Shown here piece by piece: positions 31,293 to 44,503 of a stretch of 64,000 nt of DNA. The stretch comes from a virus. The first letter of the stretch is position 1; each line of letters starts with the position of its first letter. The translations under genes were made by a program, and so were the position numbers. A model generated the notes under the pieces. That model ran no database searches, had not been told where the DNA came from, and worked only from the letters and a program-made list of their open reading frames with translations. The DNA is taken from IMG/VR virus record IMGVR_UViG_3300045988_035499. One strand, given 5' to 3'.

Positions 31293-32225
31293 TTAATAAT
31301 TATTCTAGTTATATATTGTCTACTCTTCTCCGGTTGTACTAAAAAACAGCGAATGGTCATCAATTTCTGGATATAACTTATTCCAGTCATTCTTAATACT
31401 CTCTATGTCGTCTACTCCAGGCATCATAGCCTCAGCGTATGCTTGTTTACGATAGAAGTTATAAGAGTTACGTATATCATAGTAGTCTCCTTGACTTATT
31501 TCTCCTTTCAATTTTTTAGGATACATAAGTTTCATAGTAACATACCAGTAAATAGCTTCTTTATAAGATTCTAAATCTGGTATCATTGGCATTGAATCTT
31601 CATCAGTATATATAGCATAGTACTATATTTTAACAAAACCCATAGGAACATTAGTATTAATAAATCCAGGTTTTGTAGTATACTGTAGATCATTACTGAA
31701 CATTGTAGAATCTGCATGTCCCGTTGCACTACCAACATACTTACCATTAATAGTAGGAGTAGTGGATTGATTTATCAATGCAGCTAAAGTCTAACGTAAA
31801 CTAGTATCTTCATTCAGTTTATCTAATGCTTCTCTATCTGTAGTAAGATTAAACATATTCTTTACCAAAGGTAGCATGGCTGCATCTTTCACAAACATCT
31901 TAGGTTTACGTCTGCCACAGCATTTATCATGAGCAACACCAAAACTTGATGTAGACTTCCTCATAGGCATCCACCCGCCACAGTTCTATGTAGAGAAAGC
32001 AACCTACCCTAACTTATAAAGGTCGCAAGGCAACGCAGCTTGATGTCCTATAACTGGTAGTATTGCAGTCTTATTATCGTACTACTGAACAGCTCCTATC
32101 TTTAATACTCCCTCCATTATCCATTCACGGATATCTGTTATACGGATCTAGTCTTCTCTAAGATCCAGATCTGCTATTACTTTAGCAACTATAGTTGCTG
32201 AACTAATCATTCGATTATTTATCAT
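31293..32225 (-). CDS. Cys-containing structural protein of unknown function (310 aa)
   Basis: One frame is open from ATG 32225 (alternative ATG 32210) to TAA 31293 when TAG is read through, and includes track ORF 31320-31592. Contains CGGWMP...HDKCCGRRKP. Confidence 0.6.
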
Positions 32226-32973
32226 AATTGTATCTCCATTTAAAGCCAAAAGCAGTCTTTTTCTATCCTCTACACACTCTGTTTATAGCCGACCTATTAC
32301 TTATAGAACCGCATTCTTCGGCTGCCTAGGTCATATTTCGATACGTACATATGTAGTTATTATTTAAATCTAATTTATCTACTTTAATCCCGGACGGCTT
32401 TCTATTTTTTACTATATTAAAAATACATCTGTTATCCCTAGTATATTTCCACAGAAACCCTTCACAATTAGTTAATTTACCATTACAACAATCAGATATT
32501 CTTGTTCTAATACTGCCGTATCTGTTCATATCTATGTGTCTAGCAGCACAAGCTATACTGTCAAATGTACGTATATATTTACCTTGTAAGGAGTATTGAT
32601 CTACTTTCTATTTAACTTTATTGTATTTCAATTTCGGCAATTTAGAGTACTTGCGACTAGCATATCTGTTTCCGTTATATTCTGGTCGCATGTCTAAATA
32701 TTTCTGTTCTAACATTAATAAGGTATCATGTATAGGCTAACAAACTTCCAATATGCATATTTCAAACTTATCTTCTCCATATTTATTATAAGCTCTCTAC
32801 AAATAAATAGAGTGATGATAGTTCTTACGTAATTCACTTCTATGTTTAATAAACCTACGTTTGAAATTATTAGTACTTCCTATATATTTATGTCCATTAA
32901 TTATATTACGTATCATATATATACCGGCAAGTTCTTGTGCACTATTTATCTAATTAAACTTCAGGGTAATCAT
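32215..32973 (-). CDS. GIY-YIG homing endonuclease 2 (free-standing, 252 aa)
   Basis: The core reads GIYMIRNIINGHKYIGSTNNFKRRFIKH...SIYL(TAG)RAYNKYGEDKFEICILE. The C-terminal repeats are SIRTRISDCCNGKLTNCEGFLWKY and SAINRVCRG(TAG)KKTAFGFKWRY. It contains 6 in-frame TAG. Ends in TAA at 32215. Confidence 0.8.
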
Positions 32974-33415
32974 GCTCTCTATTAAAAATTATTTTTGCCA
33001 AAGTCCTCTTGTTGTCTCTACTTGCTACAAACTAATACTTACTTTTGTTTGTTAACAGGCAGTTTTTTTTGCTCCAAAAAAATCTGTATTTGTAATAATT
33101 ACTATGGGCGTTAAGCAGATATACAGGCTTACCAGTTTCTCTAGTAGCCTTCCAATCCCACCTAAGACTCTTACCTGTAAATTCTTTAGGCTAATGTTTT
33201 ACTATCTACAAAGTACCAAGCCTACAAGGAAGTTTTACCTCTTTACAATCTAACATGATAGAGTCTCTGATATATTTAAAGTAATCTGTAAGTATTGCTT
33301 TGAATGTCTTCAAGTCTATGTCATACTAAGTACCCTACTCTATATAGTTTTTATAGTTAATATAGAAGTCTGCCATAGTGTAGCATTTTCTGTTATATTC
33401 TAATCTCTCTTTCAT
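32954..33415 (-). CDS. hypothetical protein (153 aa)
   Basis: The ATG at 33415 shares a base with the upstream TAA (TAATG). The frame is open to TAA 32954 when TAG is read through. The product looks protein-like (…LPCRLGTLQIVKHQPKEF…YLLNAHSNYYKYRFFW…). Confidence 0.5.
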
Positions 33416-34059
33416 TACTTAGTAGCATATCTATTCTGCGTATCATCATGCGCATTATTGGTATCATCACTAGGCATTGCTAGCATTATTCTCAACTCTC
33501 TTTCCATTATCATCTATGTGATAGTTGGTATCATTGCAGCAGGTATAGGGAAGTCACTGTCTGGGTCAAAACATGCGTTTAATTCTGTAGGGTCTTCAGC
33601 TATAACATCTACACTTATGTACTCTAACTAATTAGAGTCTCCTTCTACATACACTTTGTTATTTTTCACCCAAGCAATATAGTCTTTACAAGTGGCTTTT
33701 CTATACTTCTGTAGTTTAGCCTTAGTGTGACTACCTAACTAAATAATGTTTCCAAACATATCCCTTACTGCTATAACACCAGGTCTAAAGTTAAAGTCTA
33801 TTAACTTTGGTAATTCCTTATCACCTACATATGTAAAGTGTCCTGGACTGTTCTCTTCTCTATCCAAGTGAATAGGTTCTATAGTAGTAAGATAGAGTTC
33901 ATTGACATCTCTACCTTTATCTATATCTTGCTTTATTAACATAGCTCGATATGATAATATCCATTTTTCTATTTGTGCTCTACTTAAATGCTCAGACTCT
34001 GCAATATTATTATTGCGAGCAATTAGCAGAACATTATCAACCATTTCATTTAATGTCAT
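33415..34059 (-). CDS. hypothetical structural protein (214 aa)
   Basis: Track ORF 33739-34146 continues through TAG to TAA 33415. The likely start is ATG 34059 (MTLNEMV); the track start at 34146 is a TTG. Confidence 0.55.
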
Positions 34060-34183
34060 ATTATATAATATCTTTTTTATAACGTTATAACCTATTTTAA
34101 CGCATTTTAAGCCGTTTAGAGACACTTTCTTTTTTAGGTAGTACAATCCTTAGTATAACTAATAGCCTTTCTTACAGAGGCTT

Positions 34184-34217
34184 AAAATAAAAAAGGTTGA
34201 TCTTATTGATCAACCTT
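34184..34217 (-). terminator. rho-independent terminator
   Basis: A perfect 10-bp stem (AAGGTTGATC/GATCAACCTT, 34193-34217) with a 5-nt loop is followed on the minus strand by TTTTTTATTTT. The TAA of the upstream gene lies in the loop. Confidence 0.75.
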
Positions 34218-34766
34218 ATTCATAACATCCTTCATATCCTAAGGTAGCATGTTCTTCATTGGTTCAGGAACCATCTAATTAGCTTTCCTTATGATACTCT
34301 TCAATTCTCTAACTTCTCTTTGGAGTTCCGATATCTTCGGATCTTCTTTAGGAGCTTCTGTTCCAACTCCTAGCTTATCTAACAGTGACTAACATTTAGC
34401 CATCTCTTCATCGCATTTGGCGATTGTTTCTTTTCTCTGTTTGTACGTTTCGTATTGGTTACGTATAATACCAATTATTTCCTACTTGTCTGTAGATATA
34501 GTAAGACCTATTTGACTATCTGTAATGACCGATTTATTTTCGGGTATTGTGAACTTTTTAGTTTCACCATTACATTGAATCGTTACATCTACAACCCTTT
34601 TGCGCTATTGGTTTGGCATTGGGAATTGACCAGGAGGAAGAGGTTCTTCATATACATTACCAACCTAAGTAACAGAGCCTTCATTATACTCGGTAGTCTT
34701 TTTAAAAGTGCCAACTACCTCTATTATATATACTTTATCTCCTATGTTTAATTGATTGAATAGCAT
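34203..34766 (-). CDS. hypothetical protein (187 aa)
   Basis: ATG 34766 to TAA 34203 is a single frame containing 6 TAG. The C-terminal part is coiled-coil-like. The plus-strand track ORF 34455-34751 is its antisense shadow. Confidence 0.55.
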
Positions 34767-34782
34767 AAGTATAAGATTTTAT

Positions 34783-34804
34783 AAGGGCTCAATTAAGAGC
34801 CCTT
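34783..34804 (-). terminator. stem-loop (weak terminator or attenuator)
   Basis: An 8-bp stem AAGGGCTC/GAGCCCTT with a 6-nt loop lies between stop 34813 and ATG 34766. The downstream U-tract is poor. Confidence 0.35.
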
Positions 34805-34812
34805 GATTTATA

Positions 34813-35247
34813 TTAAGCAGCCGGTGTATTTGTTGCCGGAGCTACTATATGATTAACAGTCTAGAAAGTTCCATTACTCTTATTGTAATAGATTAAGTAT
34901 CTATTACCAGTAGAAATTTCTTCTGTAACCATCTATTCACCAGAACCATTAAGTAATGCTCTAGCACCAGTTGAAGTGGTAGTAGATGTACTACTTACTT
35001 GGCTTGAAGATCTAGTAGGATCTATACTTACTAATGATCCTGCTGTAACAGTAGATGCTGGGGTATGAGATATATTAAGTAAAATCATACCTTCACATGG
35101 AAGTTGTCTCCATATTTTTGGGCATATACCATATACAACTGAATTGTTAGTAGTATCTGTAGTAACATATAAACTCTTCAAAGTAGGTATACCAAAGTTG
35201 TCTATTGTTCTTACTCTATTGCTATAAGGATTAAAAGGATAAAACAT
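34813..35247 (-). CDS. hypothetical protein (144 aa)
   Basis: ATG 35247 is preceded by AAGGAAGGAGG. Track ORF 34933-35247 continues through 2 TAG to TAA 34813. The middle is Ser/Thr-rich. Confidence 0.55.
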
Positions 35248-35266
35248 ATATTGCCTCCTTCCTTAA

Positions 35267-36181
35267 TTAGCAACCACAACCACAACCGTCGTTGTAACCG
35301 AATCCATAACCAGTGTATCCACCGTTACATCCGAAAGGGTTACATGTCAGATAAGCAGGAACCGGACACGGTCTGATCTGATTTACGATATTAGCTGTTT
35401 GAGCCTACTGAGAAGCAGCGAACTGCAATGTTTGTTTGTCATCACGCAGAGCGTCAATCTTATTCTGCATTTCTCTCATTTCAAGCTGACAGAACTTGTC
35501 ATTGATGATCTGAGTTTGTGCATCTATTTTAGAACCAAGGATATTAAACTTGGTAGCATTGTCCTGAATCAAGTTATTGAAACCACCAGTAATTGCATTC
35601 TGCAGAGTATTAGTCTGGTTACATACTGATAATTGATTTTCATAACCCATCTTAGTAATGTTGTTATTTACTCCGCTAATGGATTCTCTAACATCGCAGC
35701 AGCAGCTAGCCAACTGAGAAGCAAGAGTTGCATTACCAGAACCAATAGCGTTAATTACTTCACAACTAGCTAACTTAGTATCACAAGATACCTGACTTAC
35801 ACCAGCGTTAATTTGATTTAAAGCAGCTTGAACAGAATTAAGATCACAGTTCAAAGTGCTAGACAAAGTACTGATAGCCTCCTTGTTTCCATTAATAGCC
35901 TGCATAAGCAGATTAGTATTAGCATCAGTGTTCAGTTCAGAAGCCAAGCGACTAGCTTCATTGTTACCACGACCGAAGCCGTTGCCACCGAAACCACCCC
36001 AGCAGAAGAAGATCAAAATGATCCAAATCCACCACCAGCCACCATTACCGCCCATGCCATTGTTGTTCATCATAGCCATAAGAGCTGCGGGGTCCATACT
36101 ACCTTTATTAGCGTTCTGCATTAAAGCAGCAAGACCAGCATCGAAACCACGGTCTTGTACTATAATTCTATCTTCTAACAT
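35267..36181 (-). CDS. membrane-anchored Cys-rich protein of unknown function (304 aa)
   Basis: It has a Trp-rich hydrophobic helix GGWWWIWIILIFFCWGGFGG, about 15 Cys and a C-terminus ...GYTGYGFGYNDGCGCGC. One TAG at 35405 is read through to TAA 35267. It is visibly more G+C-rich than its flanks. Confidence 0.6.
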
Positions 36182-36210
36182 AATTGATTTAATTTAAAAT
36201 TGATTTTTGA

Positions 36211-36843
36211 TTAATATCTAACATAGCGAGTAGCTCTACTACGTCCATATTCTGTATAAGGATCATACTCTCTTTCTCTTTCTTTTTCAAAGAGTTTGTC
36301 GTATTCTTCACGTTCAACATCGTATCTGTTTCCATAAACTCTACGACCATACATACCTCCACGTCTACCACCTCTACGGTACAGACCAGCATGTTCATAT
36401 TCGTCTTCATCGTCTTCTTCGTATTTACCACGTTTGGATACTTCTTCTTCGTAGCATTCCATTTCAGCATCTCTGATCTTATCACACATAACGTAAATAT
36501 AGTAATACCACATTTTGCCTTCTTCAATGTCTTTATCATTTAACCAGGCTTTAGCGAATTCTACAAAATTCTTAGTGCTATTAGAATTAGTGATGCTTAA
36601 CATTACTTTATAGTAATCAGAATATACCATGTTGAGTGCAACAAACCAGTCATAACGATTAAACTTATGATTTAAGTTTATGCCATATTGATTTGCTAAT
36701 GCAGTAGTTTCCTCGAGAGACCAATGAGCGCCACGTGTGCCATCCTCATTTTCCATTTTACTTACAGCTTTACGAGCTTTTTCCTCATTGAAATGAGGTC
36801 CGTGTTCCATCTCGTAAGCCTTTTCACGAAATATTCTATGCAT
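36211..36843 (-). CDS. hypothetical protein with an Arg/Gly/Tyr/Glu-rich tail (210 aa)
   Basis: Uninterrupted ORF with no TAG. The C-terminus reads GLYRRGGRRGGMYGRRVYGNRYDVEREEYDKLFEKEREREYD. It is G+C-richer than its flanks. Ends in TAA. Confidence 0.6.
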   Translation of the reverse strand: MHRIFREKAYEMEHGPHFNEEKARKAVSKMENEDGTRGAHWSLEETTALANQYGINLNHKFNRYDWFVALNMVYSDYYKVMLSITNSNSTKNFVEFAKAWLNDKDIEEGKMWYYYIYVMCDKIRDAEMECYEEEVSKRGKYEEDDEDEYEHAGLYRRGGRRGGMYGRRVYGNRYDVEREEYDKLFEKEREREYDPYTEYGRSRATRYVRY

Positions 36844-36875
36844 ATTATTATTGATTAATATTTATTTGAATATAA

Positions 36876-37514
36876 TTATTTTGGTACTTCTATTATTCGA
36901 GTACCTGTTACCTTTATCAAAGGATTTGAATTTACTATCTGATATTGTTTGGTATGTATTTTCTTCCAATCAAAGTGCCAGAACCTAACCCAGCCATTTT
37001 TGTACTTAGTACGGTATTCCTTTTTTTCTTCTATGAAAATAGTTTGCTAGTTCTTTATGTCTAACTTGGCTGTTAGGATTGAGTCCTTTCTACTAACTAT
37101 GATAGTTGTTAATGGATTAAGTTTTAATTCCTCCTTAAAGTCTACTGTTTTATGCTTTATTACAGTTTTAATAGAATCTTTAACCTCTGTATTGATTACA
37201 CTTACATTTGTTAGGTTCTTGTCTTTGATCTTTAATTCTTTCTAAGTATTTTTTATCTACTGTATAAGACTATCTTTACTAGCATTTAATTCTTCTATAG
37301 TAAGCTATAATACTCTATTTTGTTTTTCCTTATTAGTAGCAATATCCTCATACGCTCTAACGTTGTTAGTTATTCTGTCTAATTCTTTGTCCTTTTTTTT
37401 GAGCTAATGGTTCTAATAAAAAACAGTCGCAATAAGTAAACTAACTAAACCTACTGCGACTGCTTTGTAATTTCCTGTGAACCAATTAACTATCTTTGCT
37501 ATTATTGGAATCAT
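36876..37514 (-). CDS. spanin-like protein (N-terminal TM plus coiled coil, 212 aa)
   Basis: ATG 37514 lies inside the holin 3' end. It has a TM segment AVAVGLVSLLIATVFY followed by a charged coiled-coil region. It contains 6 in-frame TAG. Ends in TAA at 36876. Confidence 0.45.
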
Positions 37515-37965
37515 CTGGTAAATCTTTATCTAATGATATATCTAAATATTTTTCTCCCTTTGCTTTGATCACTTTCTTGAGTATCTTCCAAATCTTCCAT
37601 TTGGGATACAACTCGCAGAATGATTCTAATAACGACCAAAATTCTACTAATGCTATCATACCTGCTACAATCTCTACAGCATGTATATTAACAGATGTTA
37701 TTATCAACTGGTCAATAATAGAAGCACTTGTTATAGCTACGCCAGCATCTCTAACCTTCCATAAAGTTTTCCATGCCTTATGAGACTCTATTTTAGGATG
37801 ACCGCATTTTTTAGATACTTTATAACCATATAAAGCATCCAACAGTATCAATGCTCCTACGGCAGTGATAGGTATCCATATAGGTACAAATATTAAAATG
37901 AGACCTGTAATTATTGAGGCCACACATTTATCTGCACTACTGAACATGTTTTTGAAAATTGACAT
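37486..37965 (-). CDS. holin (phage_holin_4-like)
   Basis: Multiple TM helices are present (ASIITGLILIFVPIWIPITAVGALILLDALYGYKVSKK...; AGMIALVEFWSLLES). There is no TAG. The start is 37965 or 37995. Ends in TAA. Confidence 0.6.
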   Translation of the reverse strand: MSIFKNMFSSADKCVASIITGLILIFVPIWIPITAVGALILLDALYGYKVSKKCGHPKIESHKAWKTLWKVRDAGVAITSASIIDQLIITSVNIHAVEIVAGMIALVEFWSLLESFCELYPKWKIWKILKKVIKAKGEKYLDISLDKDLPDDSNNSKDS

Positions 37966-38024
37966 AGTATGTTCTCCTAATTGTTGATAAGTCATAGATA
38001 GTAGAATGATAGTAAGTTGTAATC

Positions 38025-38066
38025 AAAAAGCCCTAGAGATTAAAGGGGAGTAAAATCTGCTAGGGC
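38025..38066 (-). terminator. probable terminator upstream of the holin operon
   Basis: Stem GCCCTAG/CTAGGGC extends by AGATT/AATCT (38030-38066) and is followed on the minus strand by TTTTTGATT. Confidence 0.45.
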
Positions 38067-38165
38067 CTGTTATTTTGTTGAGATTATATTTTATATAACG
38101 GTGTAGTTATAAGTATGTTGCTACGCATTCTTATTTCTGAATAAGAACTAATAGCTCTTTATACT

Positions 38166-40256
38166 TTAAGATGCTGCATTTACAGGATATGGATTAAATG
38201 TCAAACGTGTACCTATATCATTGTTTTTGTTACCAAATAAAGTATAACCAGTGTAGGAGAATAATCCAGCACCTGAAGAATTATTACTAGCACCACCAAA
38301 TGTTATCATCTTCGTATCTGTGGTAGCGTTAACAGAGCATTCGTCACAATAGTATGTATTACTTGTAGCAGATGTTTCTTTCGCAAATATATCTGCAGAG
38401 TTATTACCAATTATCTGTGAAATATAGCCATCTGTAGTTGATATACTAAACGCAGGTTTAGTCATATCCATAGTCCACTTATCAGTATCTGTACTAATAT
38501 ATATGTTATTATCAGTTCCTGCAAGTGCAATATCTATCACAGCTTTTTTAATATGACCAAATGGATTCTCTATACCTCTATATCTAGGAACATATACAGT
38601 ATAGTTACCACCATTGTTCTAGTAGCTATAAGGCTTAGCACCAGTACCATTGCCATATTCATGAGTGGTACCAGTAGGTACAAATGCATAAGCTCCATTT
38701 TTTTGAGATTTGGTTACGCCTGCACCCAATCCTCCTTGATTGAACTCATTTTCCATGAAATCTACTTCTTTCGTTGTATAAAGGTCATCTTGAGTGTTTC
38801 TATTCGCAAATTCTACAACGAATAACCAAACTAAAGTTTTATGAGCCTAATAAGTATAAACATTCCAATGATTTGATCTATTTCTGCCTCTGGCATATGC
38901 CTGCATTAAGTTTAAAGTAAGGTTAGTAGTTGGAATATTCGTACTTGATTGATTACTTGACACAGAGCGTAATAAAGTAGGAGTACTGGCAACTTCCGTT
39001 GCTTCGTATGCTGCAATATATTGTTTAGGTACTTTTTCAAATCCAGGCAGATTGTATTCACTTAATCTGATTTCTACCTCATTGTTTGGAGTAGATACTA
39101 GTAATCTGTAGTGCTCTGGTATTTCTACAAAATACTCTGGTGCATATCCTGCAGAGTCTACAGCAATTGCTGTTCCATCTTCCCACCTAGACCAATTTTC
39201 TGGATCAAGATACTTAATAACATCATCTGCGTTATTAATAGTACAGCCTCTCATCTTACTTTGAATAGGTAGTGTACTATGCATTCTTCTATTACCTGTA
39301 CGTCGTCCTTTTGGGCTAGAGTCAGTAAACCTAACTCCGTACCACAGACAACTATCAATCTAATTATATGATTCTGACAGAGCTATAAAGTCTGTAGATC
39401 CCATTAATCCTACACTATCATAGTAGGCTCTTTCAATATAAATATTTGACTAATTGTTCTGTTCATATTGTTTTGTGATATCATTATACTGATAATAGTC
39501 ATAGTCAATATAGACTCCATTATCTTCATAACGAACATCCATAGAATTATTCAAAATAGTAGTTGGAATAGAAGCTACTCTGTCAGTAACAGCTTTACCT
39601 TTATCTCCAGGATAGGCTGTAGAAGAATTTTCACCTAAAGCGATAGACGGACTAATCTCTATATAATCAGAACCAGACCAACGATATGTTAAATTGGTAT
39701 TCTATGCTACATATATCTTACCAGATTCCCCAGTAATAGGGAATGATGATAGATTAGCATACTCAAGTACATCATCTACATAGGAAGGAAGTTGACTTTC
39801 AGGTATCTTACCATTAGAATTCAAAGAAGCTATACCACCTGCTACACCTTTAGTAGCCTCAAATGCCATGTGTCTATCTTCTAAGTCATCTAAATTATCC
39901 TGTAAAGTTTTATCTGCAGCTTTTCTGTCTGCTACTTCCTAACTTAACTTACCTGGTAATTCAACTAAGTAATTAGGTATCTGACTATTAGGAACTTTAC
40001 CGTCTGAGTCAAGTGATGCAAGACCATTAGGTTGAGCTTTAGTAGACTTAAAGTTCTGTAAATCTTCATTTACGGCTTTAATCTTCTCATATTGATCTAC
40101 ATTTGTGTCTTTATTCAAAGGTATCCATTCGTCCCCTTTAAAAGACTTAACTACGTTACCACTAGGGTCGCTAGCTAAATCAATCCAGTAAGAAACTTCC
40201 TTAGGGTTAGGAGCATATTGTGATGCTACAAAATTAGGGTTTTCTTTTCTTATCAT
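38166..40256 (-). CDS. tail fibre protein (696 aa)
   Basis: Fragments 38166-38540, 38847-39284 and 39939-40256 are co-framed with only TAG between them. The N-terminal anchor-like NPKEVSYWIDL is shared with 43038-44003. It carries two GLASLDSxGK(V/I)PxSQ(L/I)P motifs and a YVDDVLEY...GKIYV...YRWSG cassette. Confidence 0.75.
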
Positions 40257-44059: not shown

Positions 44060-44503
44060 TTATGCTGCAAACTCTATTACCTTATTTTTAAACCCAGGGT
44101 CGTAACAATCTATATGAACCCACGAAACGGCCTTTTCTAATCTAATCTTATAAGGCAATTTATCCTGATTATCTTTAATCAACTGTCTAATTTCCTCAGC
44201 AGACTTAGCATTACAAGTAAAGTCTACTCCATTTCCAGTAACATGAGCTGACATATAAGGTCCAGTCTTAGCTTTAACTAATGGACACATATTACATCTT
44301 AATCCTCTCTGTTTGAGCTTACTAGTATTTACTATCATTGGTAGATTAATTATTTCTGTACGTAGTACTAATAAGGTATGCAATAAAGGAGTACTTAGAA
44401 ACATCCAAGCCTGTTCTTTGAACTTATCATATACATGATTACATACTAATTCTCCAATGCGAAAATACTGCTTTAATTCTTTAATTATTTGTTCTCGTTC
44501 CAT
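44060..44503 (-). CDS. endolysin, peptidase M15 (zinc D-Ala-D-Ala carboxypeptidase-like) family
   Basis: Motifs SAHVTGNGVDF (SxHxxGxAxD type) and WVHID are present. 147 aa with no TAG. Ends in TAA. Confidence 0.7.
   Translation of the reverse strand: MEREQIIKELKQYFRIGELVCNHVYDKFKEQAWMFLSTPLLHTLLVLRTEIINLPMIVNTSKLKQRGLRCNMCPLVKAKTGPYMSAHVTGNGVDFTCNAKSAEEIRQLIKDNQDKLPYKIRLEKAVSWVHIDCYDPGFKNKVIEFAA

Follow-up and report, generated by a model that had tools for sequence, protein, structure and literature searches.

A four-gene cassette next to the lysis genes of a crAss-like phage belongs to an order-conserved, repeatedly deleted module of Bacteroidales phages

The stretch of DNA analysed here, a 64-kb window (64,000 nucleotides), belongs to a crAss-like phage (Suoliviridae) in which TAG is read as Gln in late genes. 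CrAss-like phages are among the most abundant human gut viruses; to our knowledge, their lysis of, or coexistence with, their Bacteroidales hosts is poorly understood. A preliminary description of the window had singled out a two-gene island. We found that the unit is a cassette of four genes, E-A-B-C, running from 36843 down to 34203 on the minus strand between the holin and spanin-like genes and the tail ring genes. According to sequence homology, this cassette is a copy, with altered gene order, of a module, A-B-C-(D)-E-F, that keeps its order in dozens of Bacteroidales phages and prophages. The cassette is dispensable and has been deleted independently and often in natural populations. The families of E (DUF7841) and A (PHROG 16490) were already known; the four-gene cassette and the module are defined here. 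The locus contains the following features.

38030..38066, minus strand: hairpin and T-run upstream of the holin gene, read in the sequence as CCCTAGCAGATT...AATCTCTAGGG and then TTTTT
37486..37995, minus strand: holin gene, 169 aa (Pfam Phage_holin_4_1, E = 1.9e-5, above the gathering score)
36876..37514, minus strand: spanin-like or LysB-like gene, 212 aa, N-terminal membrane helix and coiled coil
36211..36843, minus strand: gene E, 210 aa, the first gene singled out; DUF7841 domain and acidic/RGG/Tyr-rich tail
35267..36181, minus strand: gene A, 304 aa, the second gene singled out and the G+C peak of the window; PHROG 16490
34813..35247, minus strand: gene B, 144 aa, third in the cassette; Ser/Thr-rich, no family match
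34203..34766, minus strand: gene C, 187 aa, fourth in the cassette; N-terminal domain and C-terminal coiled coil
34193..34217, minus strand: intrinsic-terminator-like hairpin from a terminator scan; overlaps the gene C stop codon and bounds the block at its lower end
33415..34059, minus strand: gene of CrAss tail ring protein 2 (PF25702 CrAss_Ring_2, E = 3.8e-78)

Both ORFs proposed earlier, of 210 and 304 aa, were recovered on the minus strand with the same ends, the 304-aa one on condition that TAG at 35405-35407 is a sense codon. When TAG was read through, the minus-strand ORF content rose from 11,868 aa under the standard code to 20,399 aa, and ORFs of 4599 and 1637 aa appeared. TAG recoding in the window is solid. 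The standard-code reading, under which gene A would end at 258 aa, was rejected, as the late region as a whole needs TAG read-through.

35405..35407, minus strand: in-frame TAG, codon 259 of gene A, read as Gln

This codon aligns with a Gln in the conserved motif SQQAQTA of homologues from Clostridium phages that use the standard code.

The cassette starts 32 bp after the spanin-like gene, within a late block bounded by terminators, and no promoter of its own was evident in the window. Of the two bracketing terminators proposed previously, the one at 34217-34193 was called by the scan (10 pairs, then TTTTATTTTA), while the hairpin at 38066-38030 is visible in the sequence but was not called; the latter is possibly the terminator of the preceding fibre gene and the upper boundary of the block. 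The Phage_holin_4_1 match upstream confirmed that E and A lie within a holin-containing late block, and the orthologue of this gene in cr115_1 is annotated as a holin. The 212-aa spanin-like protein had weak matches only, to DUF6549 (E = 6.6e-6), PHROG 89 Rz-like spanin (E = 2.7e-5) and TIGR03495 LysB (E = 3.7e-4). In relatives, a reverse transcriptase is encoded near the holin gene. Targeting of the cassette by a diversity-generating element (DGR) was rejected: the repeat pair of the relatives targets the upstream fibre gene instead, and the window has no reverse transcriptase or repeat pair.

The preliminary description could place neither E nor A in a known family, which is incorrect, as each belongs to one. 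E matched Pfam DUF7841 (PF25223) with 141 bits and E = 2.3e-41, the gathering threshold being 25.2 bits, and model positions 2-113 of 114 aligned to aa 3-115 (about 36499-36837), which places it in that family. A matched phrog_16490 with 138 bits and E = 7.1e-40, profile positions 9-281 of 286 aligning to aa 28-304, and the homologue of A in vir335 carries the phrog_16490 annotation in GenBank. The statement that both genes are of unknown function holds, since DUF7841 (PHROG 38431) and PHROG 16490 are both annotated so. DUF7841 is not mentioned in the literature that we searched. An NCBIfam search gave nothing for either gene, and a PDB search gave nothing relevant for E.

Beyond the DUF7841 domain, E has a tail (aa ~135-210) that is acidic, RGG- and Tyr-rich and ends in the conserved pattern EYxPYxEYGR..RYVRY of the alignment. 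Its composition, Arg/Gly/Tyr and then Glu/Arg/Tyr, is exactly as first described. The tail of this clade (~75 residues) resembles in composition the separate D proteins, whose gene lies just upstream of DUF7841 elsewhere. The AlphaFold2 model of E, built from a shallow alignment, was too poor for use (pLDDT 49). Orthologues of E in RefSeq bear the label 'RNA polymerase sigma factor/ubiquitin-like protein'. This identity found no support, as Pfam at E <= 1 gave DUF7841 and a sub-threshold PFK-gamma match only.

Gene A belongs to a large family with 5568 database matches (1421 clusters at 50% identity). Its features agree with the preliminary description in every detail: the segment GGWWWIWIILIFFCWGG, 15 Cys including CCC, and the end GYTGYGFGYNDGCGCGC. 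Two parts of the protein are of particular concern here.

35984..36040, minus strand: Gly-flanked, Trp-rich hydrophobic segment of A, aa 48-66 (sequence and family alignment)
35375..35767, minus strand: long predicted helix of A, aa 139-269 (AlphaFold2 model)

The segment at aa 48-66 is the sole hydrophobic segment of A and is presumed to be a membrane anchor. A 13-residue hydrophobic core with almost uncharged flanks was found in 53/53 aligned family members. Because of these flanks, the positive-inside rule is uninformative for the topology of A. Nearly all Cys residues (14/15 in the window copy) follow the core, and the CCC motif (aa 160-162), which lies within the long helix, is nearly invariant, C160-C162 being conserved to at least 90%. 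The C-terminal motif RPCPVPAYxTCNP is kept as far as Clostridium phages. In the AlphaFold2 model pLDDT was about 76-98 across aa 150-270 and >90 from about aa 180; it was 67 overall, and a helix at 50-61 was predicted at low confidence. Topology hints come from the vir335 homologue, which has about 90 acidic residues ahead of the hydrophobic segment, and from natural in-frame E::A fusions (P0046, P0098, P0110).

The hydrophobic segment of A is Gly- and aromatic-rich and is followed by Asn/Gln-rich, heptad-like helices, as in influenza HA2 and coronavirus S2. The A family profile aligned weakly to exactly the fusion-peptide and heptad-repeat parts of these proteins (E = 0.004-0.09), and RefSeq labels A orthologues 'outer capsid protein/viral fiber' or 'spike protein/glycoprotein'. 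The matches of A to such proteins had E-values of 0.004-0.8 only, and there was no fold match. In the PDB sequence search, the matches were confined to short helical stretches, with a best E of 0.83 for the single sequence and of 0.0036 for the family profile; Foldseek with the A model against PDB and BFVD gave nothing below E = 1, with one PDB match at E = 9.5. All PDB searches with single sequences and family profiles of A, E and C yielded marginal coiled-coil or compositional matches only, to spike, HA2, TALE repeats and GCN4 chimeras. A class I fusion glycoprotein identity for A found no support, as no significant sequence or fold match to solved fusion proteins was found. The HA2 and S2 matches are not significant and could be compositional, and the likeness itself is probably of that kind; nothing was found that speaks for a common ancestor. 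Neither RefSeq label, 'spike protein/glycoprotein' nor 'RNA polymerase sigma factor/ubiquitin-like protein', could be reproduced here, and both call for caution.

The pair E and A had been described as G+C-richer than its flanks. Windowed GC and GC3 upheld this for A but not for E. The GC of gene A was 0.413-0.414 against a window mean of 0.331, a value reached by 0.06% of windows of the same length, and the richest 915-bp G+C window in the 64 kb overlaps gene A. Its GC3 was 0.368 vs 0.227 (binomial P = 2e-8). Gene E was no outlier (GC 0.365-0.367, matched by 14% of windows; GC3 0.276, P = 0.055). The comparison with the capsid gene, made earlier by eye, holds for A, with a GC3 of 0.37 vs 0.35 in the capsid gene, CAG preference (13/20, P = 0.002) and few TAG (1/21 Gln codons in the window vs a background of 0.32, P = 0.003). 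The avoidance of TAG claimed for both genes was thus seen for A in the window and, pooled over about 75 orthologous segments, for both genes (E 1/134, A 65/1343 Gln codons); the window alone is uninformative for E because E has a single Gln codon. In the same pooled segments the TAG share was 0.31 in the holin, 0.62 in the spanin-like gene, 0.43 in the 187-aa gene C and 0.51 in Ring_2; in the cassette, B and C use TAG. Since E and A avoid TAG and the holin and spanin-like genes use it heavily, E and A are translatable whatever the state of TAG suppression.

The G+C excess might be read as the mark of a recently acquired foreign pair of no special role, or as a chance fluctuation. The A family is indeed spread over very different phages and A often adjoins homing endonuclease genes. 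However, the shift is highly significant for A, E is compositionally ordinary, and the excess recurs in about 76 related segments and in A orthologues of other AT-rich phages (+10 points of GC in L150, +5 in cr271_1, with CAG strongly preferred). This recurrence indicates that the excess is a property of the gene and does not mark a recent foreign origin. The excess, a matter of composition and codon choice, points to selection on the gene, and the foreign or chance reading, which we consider very improbable, is largely refuted.

The wider module was defined by homologues of A, B, C and E as same-strand neighbours, an arrangement found in the window. B is homologous to the gene after A elsewhere (phmmer E = 5e-10 with L088 5698-6240, 2e-9 with L151 3564-4067), and C to the third module gene (E = 3e-7 to 6e-6). 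The homologues of C, through which the window copy was placed, match phrog_28898, annotated 'unknown function'. In all-against-all phmmer comparisons, A, B, C and E of the window matched consecutive genes in cr271_1, three other crAss-like contigs, Bacteroides phage C3_41T2LP and L151. When one genome per species was scanned, A lay upstream of E in 32 of the 48 loci, mostly as A-(B)-C-(D)-E-F, and 6 loci had the E-A order of the window. No separate D gene and no homologue of F or G was found in the window at E <= 1. F is a small HExxH protein, and its C3_41T2LP copy is annotated 'PolyVal metallopeptidase superfamily'. The module was seen in crAss-like phages, in a non-crAss phage of 74 kb and in integrated elements or likely prophages. 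Recombination genes, and not lysis genes, precede it in C3_41T2LP and L151. In phages of Clostridium perfringens, which has no outer membrane, A is found by itself, in early regions.

The module proteins might decorate the virion or form fibres without being essential, like T4 Hoc, Soc and fibritin or the phi29 head fibre; they would then be abundant, late and dispensable. The capsid-like codon usage of A, the long coiled coils in A and C and the 'outer capsid protein/viral fiber' label are in line with this, as is a match of the C3_41T2LP homologue of C to PHROG 473 'virion structural protein' (E = 1.4e-8), but the latter spans about 60 residues of generic coiled coil. A strongly hydrophobic, membrane-type segment in all A members also argues against decoration, and so does a module common to crAss-like phages, a 74-kb non-crAss phage and integrated elements, which sits in the recombination block of C3_41T2LP. 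Homology of A and E to known structural proteins was searched by sequence, by profile and, for A, by fold, and none was found, including to solved virion proteins. We regard decoration as improbable. A core structural role for the cassette is likewise unlikely, because A is frequently deleted, the module occurs in different phage architectures and structural homology is lacking. Of the roles first suggested, the accessory or envelope- and lysis-related ones fit the evidence, and an abundant core virion role is improbable.

Natural deletions were identified in related IMG/VR genomes anchored on flanking genes, with the Ring_2 gene serving as a conserved flank. Gene A was missing in 11/48 of these genomes, with ten different junctions among them; across the many independent deletions, the junctions showed 0-9 bp of microhomology. 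Every large natural deletion removes A, which is their common denominator, and E was truncated or lost in 10/11 of them. An apparent retention of DUF7841 in all cases was rejected as an artefact of searching with DUF7841, since flank anchoring revealed the damage to E. Among the best 120 DUF7841 protein clusters, 65 were deletion fusions. One clean deletion, of 1761 bp relative to cr115_1, was seen in NCBI contig BRDB01004198.1 (L006); it runs from the very end of E through the whole of A and B into C, of which the 5' half is missing.

34466..36220, minus strand: stretch of the window equivalent to the deletion in BRDB01004198.1 (blastn)

Some deleted lineages circulate widely (P0313 with 136 member sequences, P0324 on 18 contigs). 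A literature search on structural variants of crAss phages found only work on bacterial variants.

Such a pattern of independent deletions with differing junctions, all removing A, and of widespread deleted lineages could reflect an arms race, in which the module is a phage-borne defence or counter-defence, or in which A is sensed by host immunity and escape occurs by deletion. The HExxH protein F of the canonical module would suit this. However, the deletions may simply be due to relaxed selection or to a deletion rate that is high at this locus. In PADLOC no module protein had a match below E = 0.003, those present being short coiled-coil matches, and no nuclease, NTPase or typical effector or sensor domain was found in the module proteins. 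We consider an arms race rather unlikely.

The position of the module is often just downstream of holin and endolysin genes, a link that was seen in several independent settings. The order in the window is holin, spanin-like, E, A, and in Bacteroides fragilis phage BF503P4 it is DUF7841, Phage_holin_4_1, a 175-aa gene and Peptidase_M15_3. In a Paraprevotella xylaniphila genome, A is preceded at a distance of 1.1 kb by a Phage_lysozyme gene (E = 4e-41), and in Bacteroides sp. ET71 at 1.4 kb by a Phage_holin_4_1 gene; at four loci, holin-like ORFs are located 2.5-3.8 kb upstream of A. The end of a late operon beside lysis genes is the classic site of unrelated accessory genes ('morons'), so adjacency is weak evidence of a lysis role. 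Like moron regions, the cassette lies between conserved core genes, is dispensable, is present or absent among close relatives and, as a module, is sometimes preceded by its own small regulator gene; unlike moron hotspots, it holds the same ordered genes across many unrelated phages and not variable cargo.

We tentatively favour, with confidence well short of even, an accessory function at the envelope or in lysis that centres on A as a membrane-anchored helical rod resembling a spanin or fusion protein. A would be a single-pass inner-membrane protein with a short cytoplasmic N-terminal tail, anchored by its Gly/Trp-rich hydrophobic helix. A Cys-rich helical rod of about 130 residues would cross the periplasm, and the Pro/Cys/aromatic C-terminal tip would reach the wall or outer membrane. 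E, the DUF7841 protein with the acidic/RGG/Tyr tail, would be cytoplasmic and would act with B and C on A from inside. The E-A-B-C set may thereby tune the failure of the envelope at the end of infection, in lysis timing or the last membrane step, beside the adjacent holin and spanin-like protein, being helpful and non-essential; lysis-timing genes of other phages are likewise dispensable. The data show family membership, architecture, the conserved order of the genes, their frequent location beside lysis genes, the codon bias and the dispensability; the topology of A, the E-A interaction and the lysis role are what we infer.

A resembles the i-spanins lambda Rz and P2 LysB in its presumed N-terminal anchor, its predicted helical rod of periplasm length and its Cys residues and in the location of its gene in or beside the holin cassette of a phage of Gram-negative hosts, and its Pro/Cys-rich C-terminal tip recalls the Pro-rich partner Rz1. 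Unlike Rz and LysB, A has no sequence similarity to them and no lipoprotein partner gene, and a separate spanin-like gene lies upstream. The A family occurs also in Clostridium phages, A is dispensable in nature, and, unlike spanins, it is accompanied by four or five genes for soluble partners. On the coding strand in 33900-38200, no ORF was found to carry a lipobox-type signal (o-spanin). Matches to spanin models of PHROG, Pfam and NCBIfam went to the upstream 212-aa protein and none to A. A does not fit a unimolecular spanin of the T1 gp11 type, since its N-terminus bears no lipobox and it has no hydrophobic segment other than that at aa 48-66. No homology of A to any characterised lysis protein was found.

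T4 lysis inhibition involves holin T, with a large periplasmic domain, RI and RIII. As proposed here, A would share with these a one-pass build, in which a short N-tail is cytoplasmic and a large domain periplasmic, and the two sets would share a small cytoplasmic partner and genes that are conserved yet readily lost, with survival of the phage. One hydrophobic segment and a large second domain give A a build reminiscent of holin T, but the two are not homologous, the window already has a Phage_holin_4_1 gene upstream, and the external part of A is a long helical rod and not globular; the likeness is one of logic only. Several observations count against the envelope or lysis accessory. These are the location of the module after recombination genes in C3_41T2LP and L151, the occurrence of A in phages of hosts without an outer membrane, and a codon bias like that of the major capsid protein, which suggests an abundance unusual in a lysis regulator. 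In addition, the charge of the flanks of A yields no clear topology signal, and in family member P0185 CGCGC-type clusters flank the hydrophobic segment on both sides.

Some of these facts would suit superinfection exclusion or an altered surface of the infected or lysogenic cell, in which the external rod of A blocks phage entry or DNA delivery and the other module proteins support or regulate it. Exclusion proteins such as lactococcal Sie2009, T4 Imm and Sp usually combine an N-terminal anchor with an external domain, the build presumed for A. The module lies at the ends of likely prophages beside host genes (in L165 presumably asnA- and ung-like, as read from ORFs), a small HTH gene is often directly upstream, its genome position varies, it is dispensable and polymorphic, A also occurs in phages of Gram-positive hosts, and the TAG-free E and A could be made early. 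However, six conserved genes are many compared with known exclusion systems, the window cassette without evident promoter sits within a terminator-bounded late block, B and C do use TAG, and no similarity to known exclusion or defence proteins was found. Exclusion is a possibility to which we give about one chance in four.

It is also possible, although we consider it doubtful, that A-B-C-(D)-E-F is an undescribed, self-contained machine of Bacteroidales phages, comprising a fusion-protein-like envelope-spanning rod, cytoplasmic partners and an HExxH protein, which is no holin, endolysin or Rz-type spanin and is under balancing selection in the human gut. If so, the module would be useful in some hosts and costly or immune-sensed in others, which would lead to the repeated deletion of A in crAss-like populations. 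Two orphan ORFs have become a defined, ordered module in virulent phages, crAss-like phages and integrated Bacteroidales elements, usually beside lysis genes, with one gene of capsid-like codon usage, and repeatedly deleted in nature. Bacteroides phage C3_41T2LP, whose host is B. uniformis MB20-41, is a cultured carrier for genetics, and the metagenomic deletion variants are a natural set of knock-outs. The module thus poses a concrete question for crAss-like phages and their Bacteroidales hosts, whether it serves lysis timing, exclusion or immune sensing.

The closest GenBank records to the region were those of the crAss-like phages cr115_1 and cr53_1 (Crassvirales, Suoliviridae), with ∼79% nucleotide identity. 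When TAG was treated as a sense codon, the minus-strand ORF content rose from 11,868 to 20,399 amino acids and ORFs of 4599 and 1637 amino acids appeared. TAG is read as Gln across the minus-strand late genes (4196-63731), where it makes up ∼32% of Gln codons, and is rare in the plus-strand genes of the left end (128-4142). No tRNA gene, suppressor or other, was found in the 64-kb window. The genes of 210 and 304 codons, here named E and A, lie where the preliminary description had placed them, and all the protein features that it listed were found in their sequences. The 304-aa length of A requires that the TAG at 35405-35407 be read as Gln; this codon aligns with a Gln of the conserved SQQAQTA in homologues from standard-code Clostridium phages. 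The block is arranged as follows:

37486-37995, minus strand, holin gene (Phage_holin_4_1)
36876-37514, minus strand, spanin-like gene
36211-36843, minus strand, gene E (210 aa)
35267-36181, minus strand, gene A (304 aa)
34813-35247, minus strand, gene B (144 aa)
34203-34766, minus strand, gene C (187 aa)
34217-34193, terminator
33415-34059, minus strand, crAss tail ring protein 2 gene (Ring_2; PF25702, E-value = 4e-78), the next gene past the block

Of the two terminators said to bracket this block, that at 34217-34193 was detected by the scan; the other, at 38066-38030, is a hairpin visible in the sequence that the scan did not call. A G+C-rich hairpin with a 9-bp stem (34782-34805), in the 46-bp gap between B and C, lacks an evident coding-strand T-run; it may serve as an attenuator or processing site. 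In another frame, an unsupported 116-aa ORF (36189-36539, minus strand) that overlaps E and reads through the E-A gap (36182-36210) is probably spurious.

E and A had been described as a pair much richer in G+C than its flanks and nearly free of TAG. The G+C claim holds for A and not for E, whose GC (0.365-0.367) and GC3 (0.276) are unremarkable. The GC of A (0.413-0.414) was reached by just 0.06% of windows of the same length, the richest 915-bp window of the 64 kb overlaps A, and its GC3 was 0.368 against a late-gene mean of 0.227 (P = 2e-8). TAG scarcity was confirmed for A, where 1 of 21 Gln codons is TAG against a background of 0.32 (P = 0.003) and CAG is favoured (13/20, P = 0.002); the zero count of E says nothing, since E has a single Gln codon. 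When ∼75-87 distinct orthologous segments of relatives were pooled, the TAG share was 1/134 in E and 65/1343 in A, compared with 0.31 in the holin gene, 0.62 in the spanin-like gene, 0.43 in C and 0.51 in Ring_2. Both genes thus genuinely avoid TAG across the clade. In other AT-rich phages, A orthologues are also enriched in G+C and CAG relative to their neighbours (contig L150, GC 0.41 vs 0.31 for the locus, 22 CAG and 11 CAA; contig L152, 27 CAG and 4 CAA). This argues against a recent foreign origin, and foreign DNA or chance as the source of the composition is essentially excluded. The pattern argues for selection on A itself, acting through protein composition and through codons of the kind preferred in highly expressed genes, the capsid gene among them. 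With their codon usage, E and A can be translated efficiently without relying on TAG suppression, and this is probably a requirement.

E is a member of Pfam DUF7841 (E-value = 2e-41) with a tail in which acidic and RGG-type basic runs precede a conserved EYxPYxEYGR..RYVRY end. A belongs to PHROG 16490 (E-value = 7e-40), a large family with 5568 matches in the database clustered at 90%, which form 1421 clusters when grouped at 50% identity. Both families, which the preliminary description had missed, are of unknown function, and no mention of DUF7841 was found in the searched literature. None of the RefSeq labels of E and A orthologues ('RNA polymerase sigma factor/ubiquitin-like protein'; 'spike protein/glycoprotein' or 'outer capsid protein/viral fiber') was reproduced at a significant level. 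The A family profile gave marginal matches (E-value = 0.004-0.09) to the segment of influenza HA2 and coronavirus S2 that comprises fusion peptide and heptad repeats; these matches account for the spike label and do not establish homology.

All 53 aligned members of the A family share one plan. A short N-terminal region with a (V/L)DPxxL..NN motif is followed by a 13-residue, very hydrophobic and often Trp-rich core with Gly-rich, almost uncharged flanks, then by a helical region containing LLMQAI.GN and a nearly invariant CCC, a variable stretch, and a C-terminus with RPCPVPAY.TCNP and a Gly/Tyr/Cys tail or with a Pro-rich, aromatic-ended tail. The AlphaFold2 model built from this alignment was all-helical, with one helix spanning residues 139-269 (pLDDT ∼76-98 over residues 150-270; weak elsewhere, mean 67), and it had no Foldseek match in PDB or BFVD. 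A is predicted to be a membrane-type protein that combines a long helical rod with a Pro/Cys/aromatic tip, an architecture like that of spanins and fusion proteins. Its partner proteins, judged by eye, are soluble and without signal peptides. No topology signal was found in the charge of the flanks of A; a predicted N-in, C-out orientation is favoured because the homologue in record vir335 has an acidic N-terminal region of ∼90 residues. In P0185, a 351-aa member of the family, CGCGC-type Cys clusters flank the hydrophobic segment on both sides, which fits poorly with a simple membrane-spanning protein whose two ends are in separate compartments.

E and A are not orphans, and the idea of a two-gene island sharing a G+C shift and lacking any family fails. 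The actual unit is a module, which was traced by Pfam scans and all-against-all phmmer of neighbour genes. A and DUF7841 recur near each other in records of distant phages. The four genes of the window between the spanin-like gene and Ring_2 match consecutive genes in crAss-like Intestiviridae (cr271_1, contigs L149, L150 and L152); they do so too in contig L151 and in Bacteroides phage C3_41T2LP, a cultured phage outside the crAss-like group. The canonical module has six genes, at times seven.

Genes of the canonical module
A: first
B: second; like the 144-aa protein of the window
C: third; like the 187-aa protein of the window; homologues match phrog_28898; trimer-like C-terminal coiled coil
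D: fourth; 60-105 aa, hardly more than an acidic/RGG/Tyr tail
E: fifth; DUF7841
F: sixth, often present; ∼140 aa, HExxH motif, C-terminal Cys cluster
G: in Intestiviridae, just before Ring_2; small multi-pass membrane protein

The scan, with one genome per species, found 48 loci. A was upstream of E in 32 of them, mostly as A-(B)-C-(D)-E-F, and six had the E-A order of the window; the remainder were cut by contig ends. In the window clade the order is E-A-B-C and a D-like tail stands on the C-terminus of E itself, so the module looks permuted, with D apparently fused to E, as composition and position suggest. Two isolates, Paraprevotella xylaniphila YIT 11841 and Bacteroides sp. ET71, are among the carriers; their contigs of 111 kb and 258 kb indicate integrated elements or likely prophages. 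A occurs without other module genes in the early regions of Clostridium perfringens phages, where the neighbouring gene reads as an endonuclease of HNH type, and also in a virus assigned to Methanomassiliicoccales. Immediately upstream of A, a small helix-turn-helix gene (DnaA_C-like or HTH_17) that may be the module's own regulator was seen in genome-integrated, C3_41T2LP and Intestiviridae contexts (L169, 4530-4820; L165, 4216-4512; L088, 3603-3899; L150, 2429-2725); the window's version lacks it. Several ∼100-kb contigs with the gene order of the window phage (L153-L157, L170 and more) are filed in GTDB bins named Clostridiales, Bacilli, Mollicutes and others, and are most likely phage contigs mis-binned into bacterial MAGs.

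The module is often found near lysis genes. E without A lies immediately ahead of the holin gene in B. fragilis phage BF503P4 (order DUF7841, holin, 175-aa gene, Peptidase_M15_3). In P. xylaniphila a Phage_lysozyme gene (E-value = 4e-41) ends 1.1 kb before A, with a lipoprotein-type ORF and a small DnaA_C-like HTH gene, both read by eye, in between; in Bacteroides sp. ET71, A is preceded at 1.4 kb by a Phage_holin_4_1 gene. In C3_41T2LP and L151 the module comes after recombination genes, not lysis genes. No o-spanin-type lipoprotein ORF accompanies the window's cassette. A TAG-free 147-aa gene (44060-44503, minus strand; 1 CAA, 5 CAG), ∼6 kb from the holin gene, looks like an M15-type peptidase and is a candidate endolysin. 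Capsid-like codon usage and coiled coils would suit a non-essential virion decoration, but the conserved hydrophobic segment is hard to square with that role, as is the presence of the module in unrelated phage types and within a recombination gene block; we consider it improbable.

The cassette E-A-B-C is dispensable and is a hotspot for deletions. Of the 120 protein clusters that matched E best, 65 were chimeras, in which E runs in frame into B or into the C-terminal portion of either C or A. Their junctions were nearly all different, their sources were Logan, ENA and NCBI assemblies, and their contigs measured 96-99 kb vs 101-102 kb for intact genomes. In the one case checked as DNA, NCBI contig BRDB01004198.1 (L006), a clean 1761-bp deletion relative to cr115_1 corresponds to window 34466-36220. 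Because a search with E favours genomes that retain E, the survey was redone with the flanking genes as anchors. Of 48 close IMG/VR relatives, 34 were intact, 11 lacked A, two lacked only B and one had a short deletion in C. The large deletions removed A in 11/11, truncated or removed E in 10/11, removed B in 8/11 and truncated or removed C in 4/11; in one genome all that is left is the final 92 residues of C, in another residues 1-133 of E. Junctions had 0-9 bp of microhomology, and ten were distinct, with two contigs sharing one. Deleted lineages can be widespread (P0313, 136 member sequences; P0324, 18 contigs), and in more distant crAss-like phages the spanin-like gene lies 27-556 bp from Ring_2 with the cassette entirely absent. 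The repeated loss of A also hints at a part in an arms race, with the module as a trigger of host immunity or as defence or counter-defence cargo, but PADLOC gave no match and this seems unlikely.

Natural in-frame DUF7841::A fusions, also deletion products, were seen in metagenome contigs of relatives (P0046, P0098, P0110, P0164), with fusion points ahead of the N-terminal motif of A or past its hydrophobic segment. Elsewhere in the 14-kb neighbourhood, length differences come from presence/absence elements of ∼1154-1170, 566, 727 and 709 bp (L046, ∼4469-5617, 9839, 10950 and 11862) with the same fixed junctions in many related genomes, in contrast to the heterogeneous deletions within the cassette; they are probably mobile elements such as the reverse transcriptase (RT) gene, homing endonuclease genes or introns. 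An RT gene lies just upstream of the holin gene in close relatives (cr115_1, L001 7714-8736; L006), which also carry a pair of 91-nt repeats with 74% identity (L006, 3240-3330 and 3478-3568). Where the two repeats differ, the downstream copy, which is intergenic, is rich in adenine, as in a diversity-generating retroelement; its putative target is the C-terminus of the 858-aa fibre gene. Neither RT gene nor repeat was found in the window. Among the ring and tail tubular genes of the window, a 252-aa ORF (32215-32973, minus strand) carries a GIY...YIG motif, and its cr4_1 counterpart is annotated as a GIY-YIG homing endonuclease.

The best fit, held tentatively, is that the module would be an accessory acting on the host envelope late in infection, where it would tune the timing of lysis or the last membrane step. 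This reading is favoured by the ordered module that phages of different build share, the frequent proximity to lysis genes, the architecture of A, its soluble partners, the codon usage and the non-essentiality. T4 lysis-inhibition genes are dispensable, and the dispensability of the cassette recalls theirs. Superinfection exclusion or another conversion-type surface function, a less probable choice, would fit the same facts but not the number of module genes. We know of no earlier description of the module, of its permuted form in the window clade or of its habitual place by lysis genes, and none was found in the searched literature; the same goes, above all, for the way in which natural deletions repeatedly remove A, the G+C-rich gene. 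Under the best explanation the module would be a lysis or envelope accessory; should it prove to be an envelope machine in its own right, maintained by balancing selection, it would amount to more.
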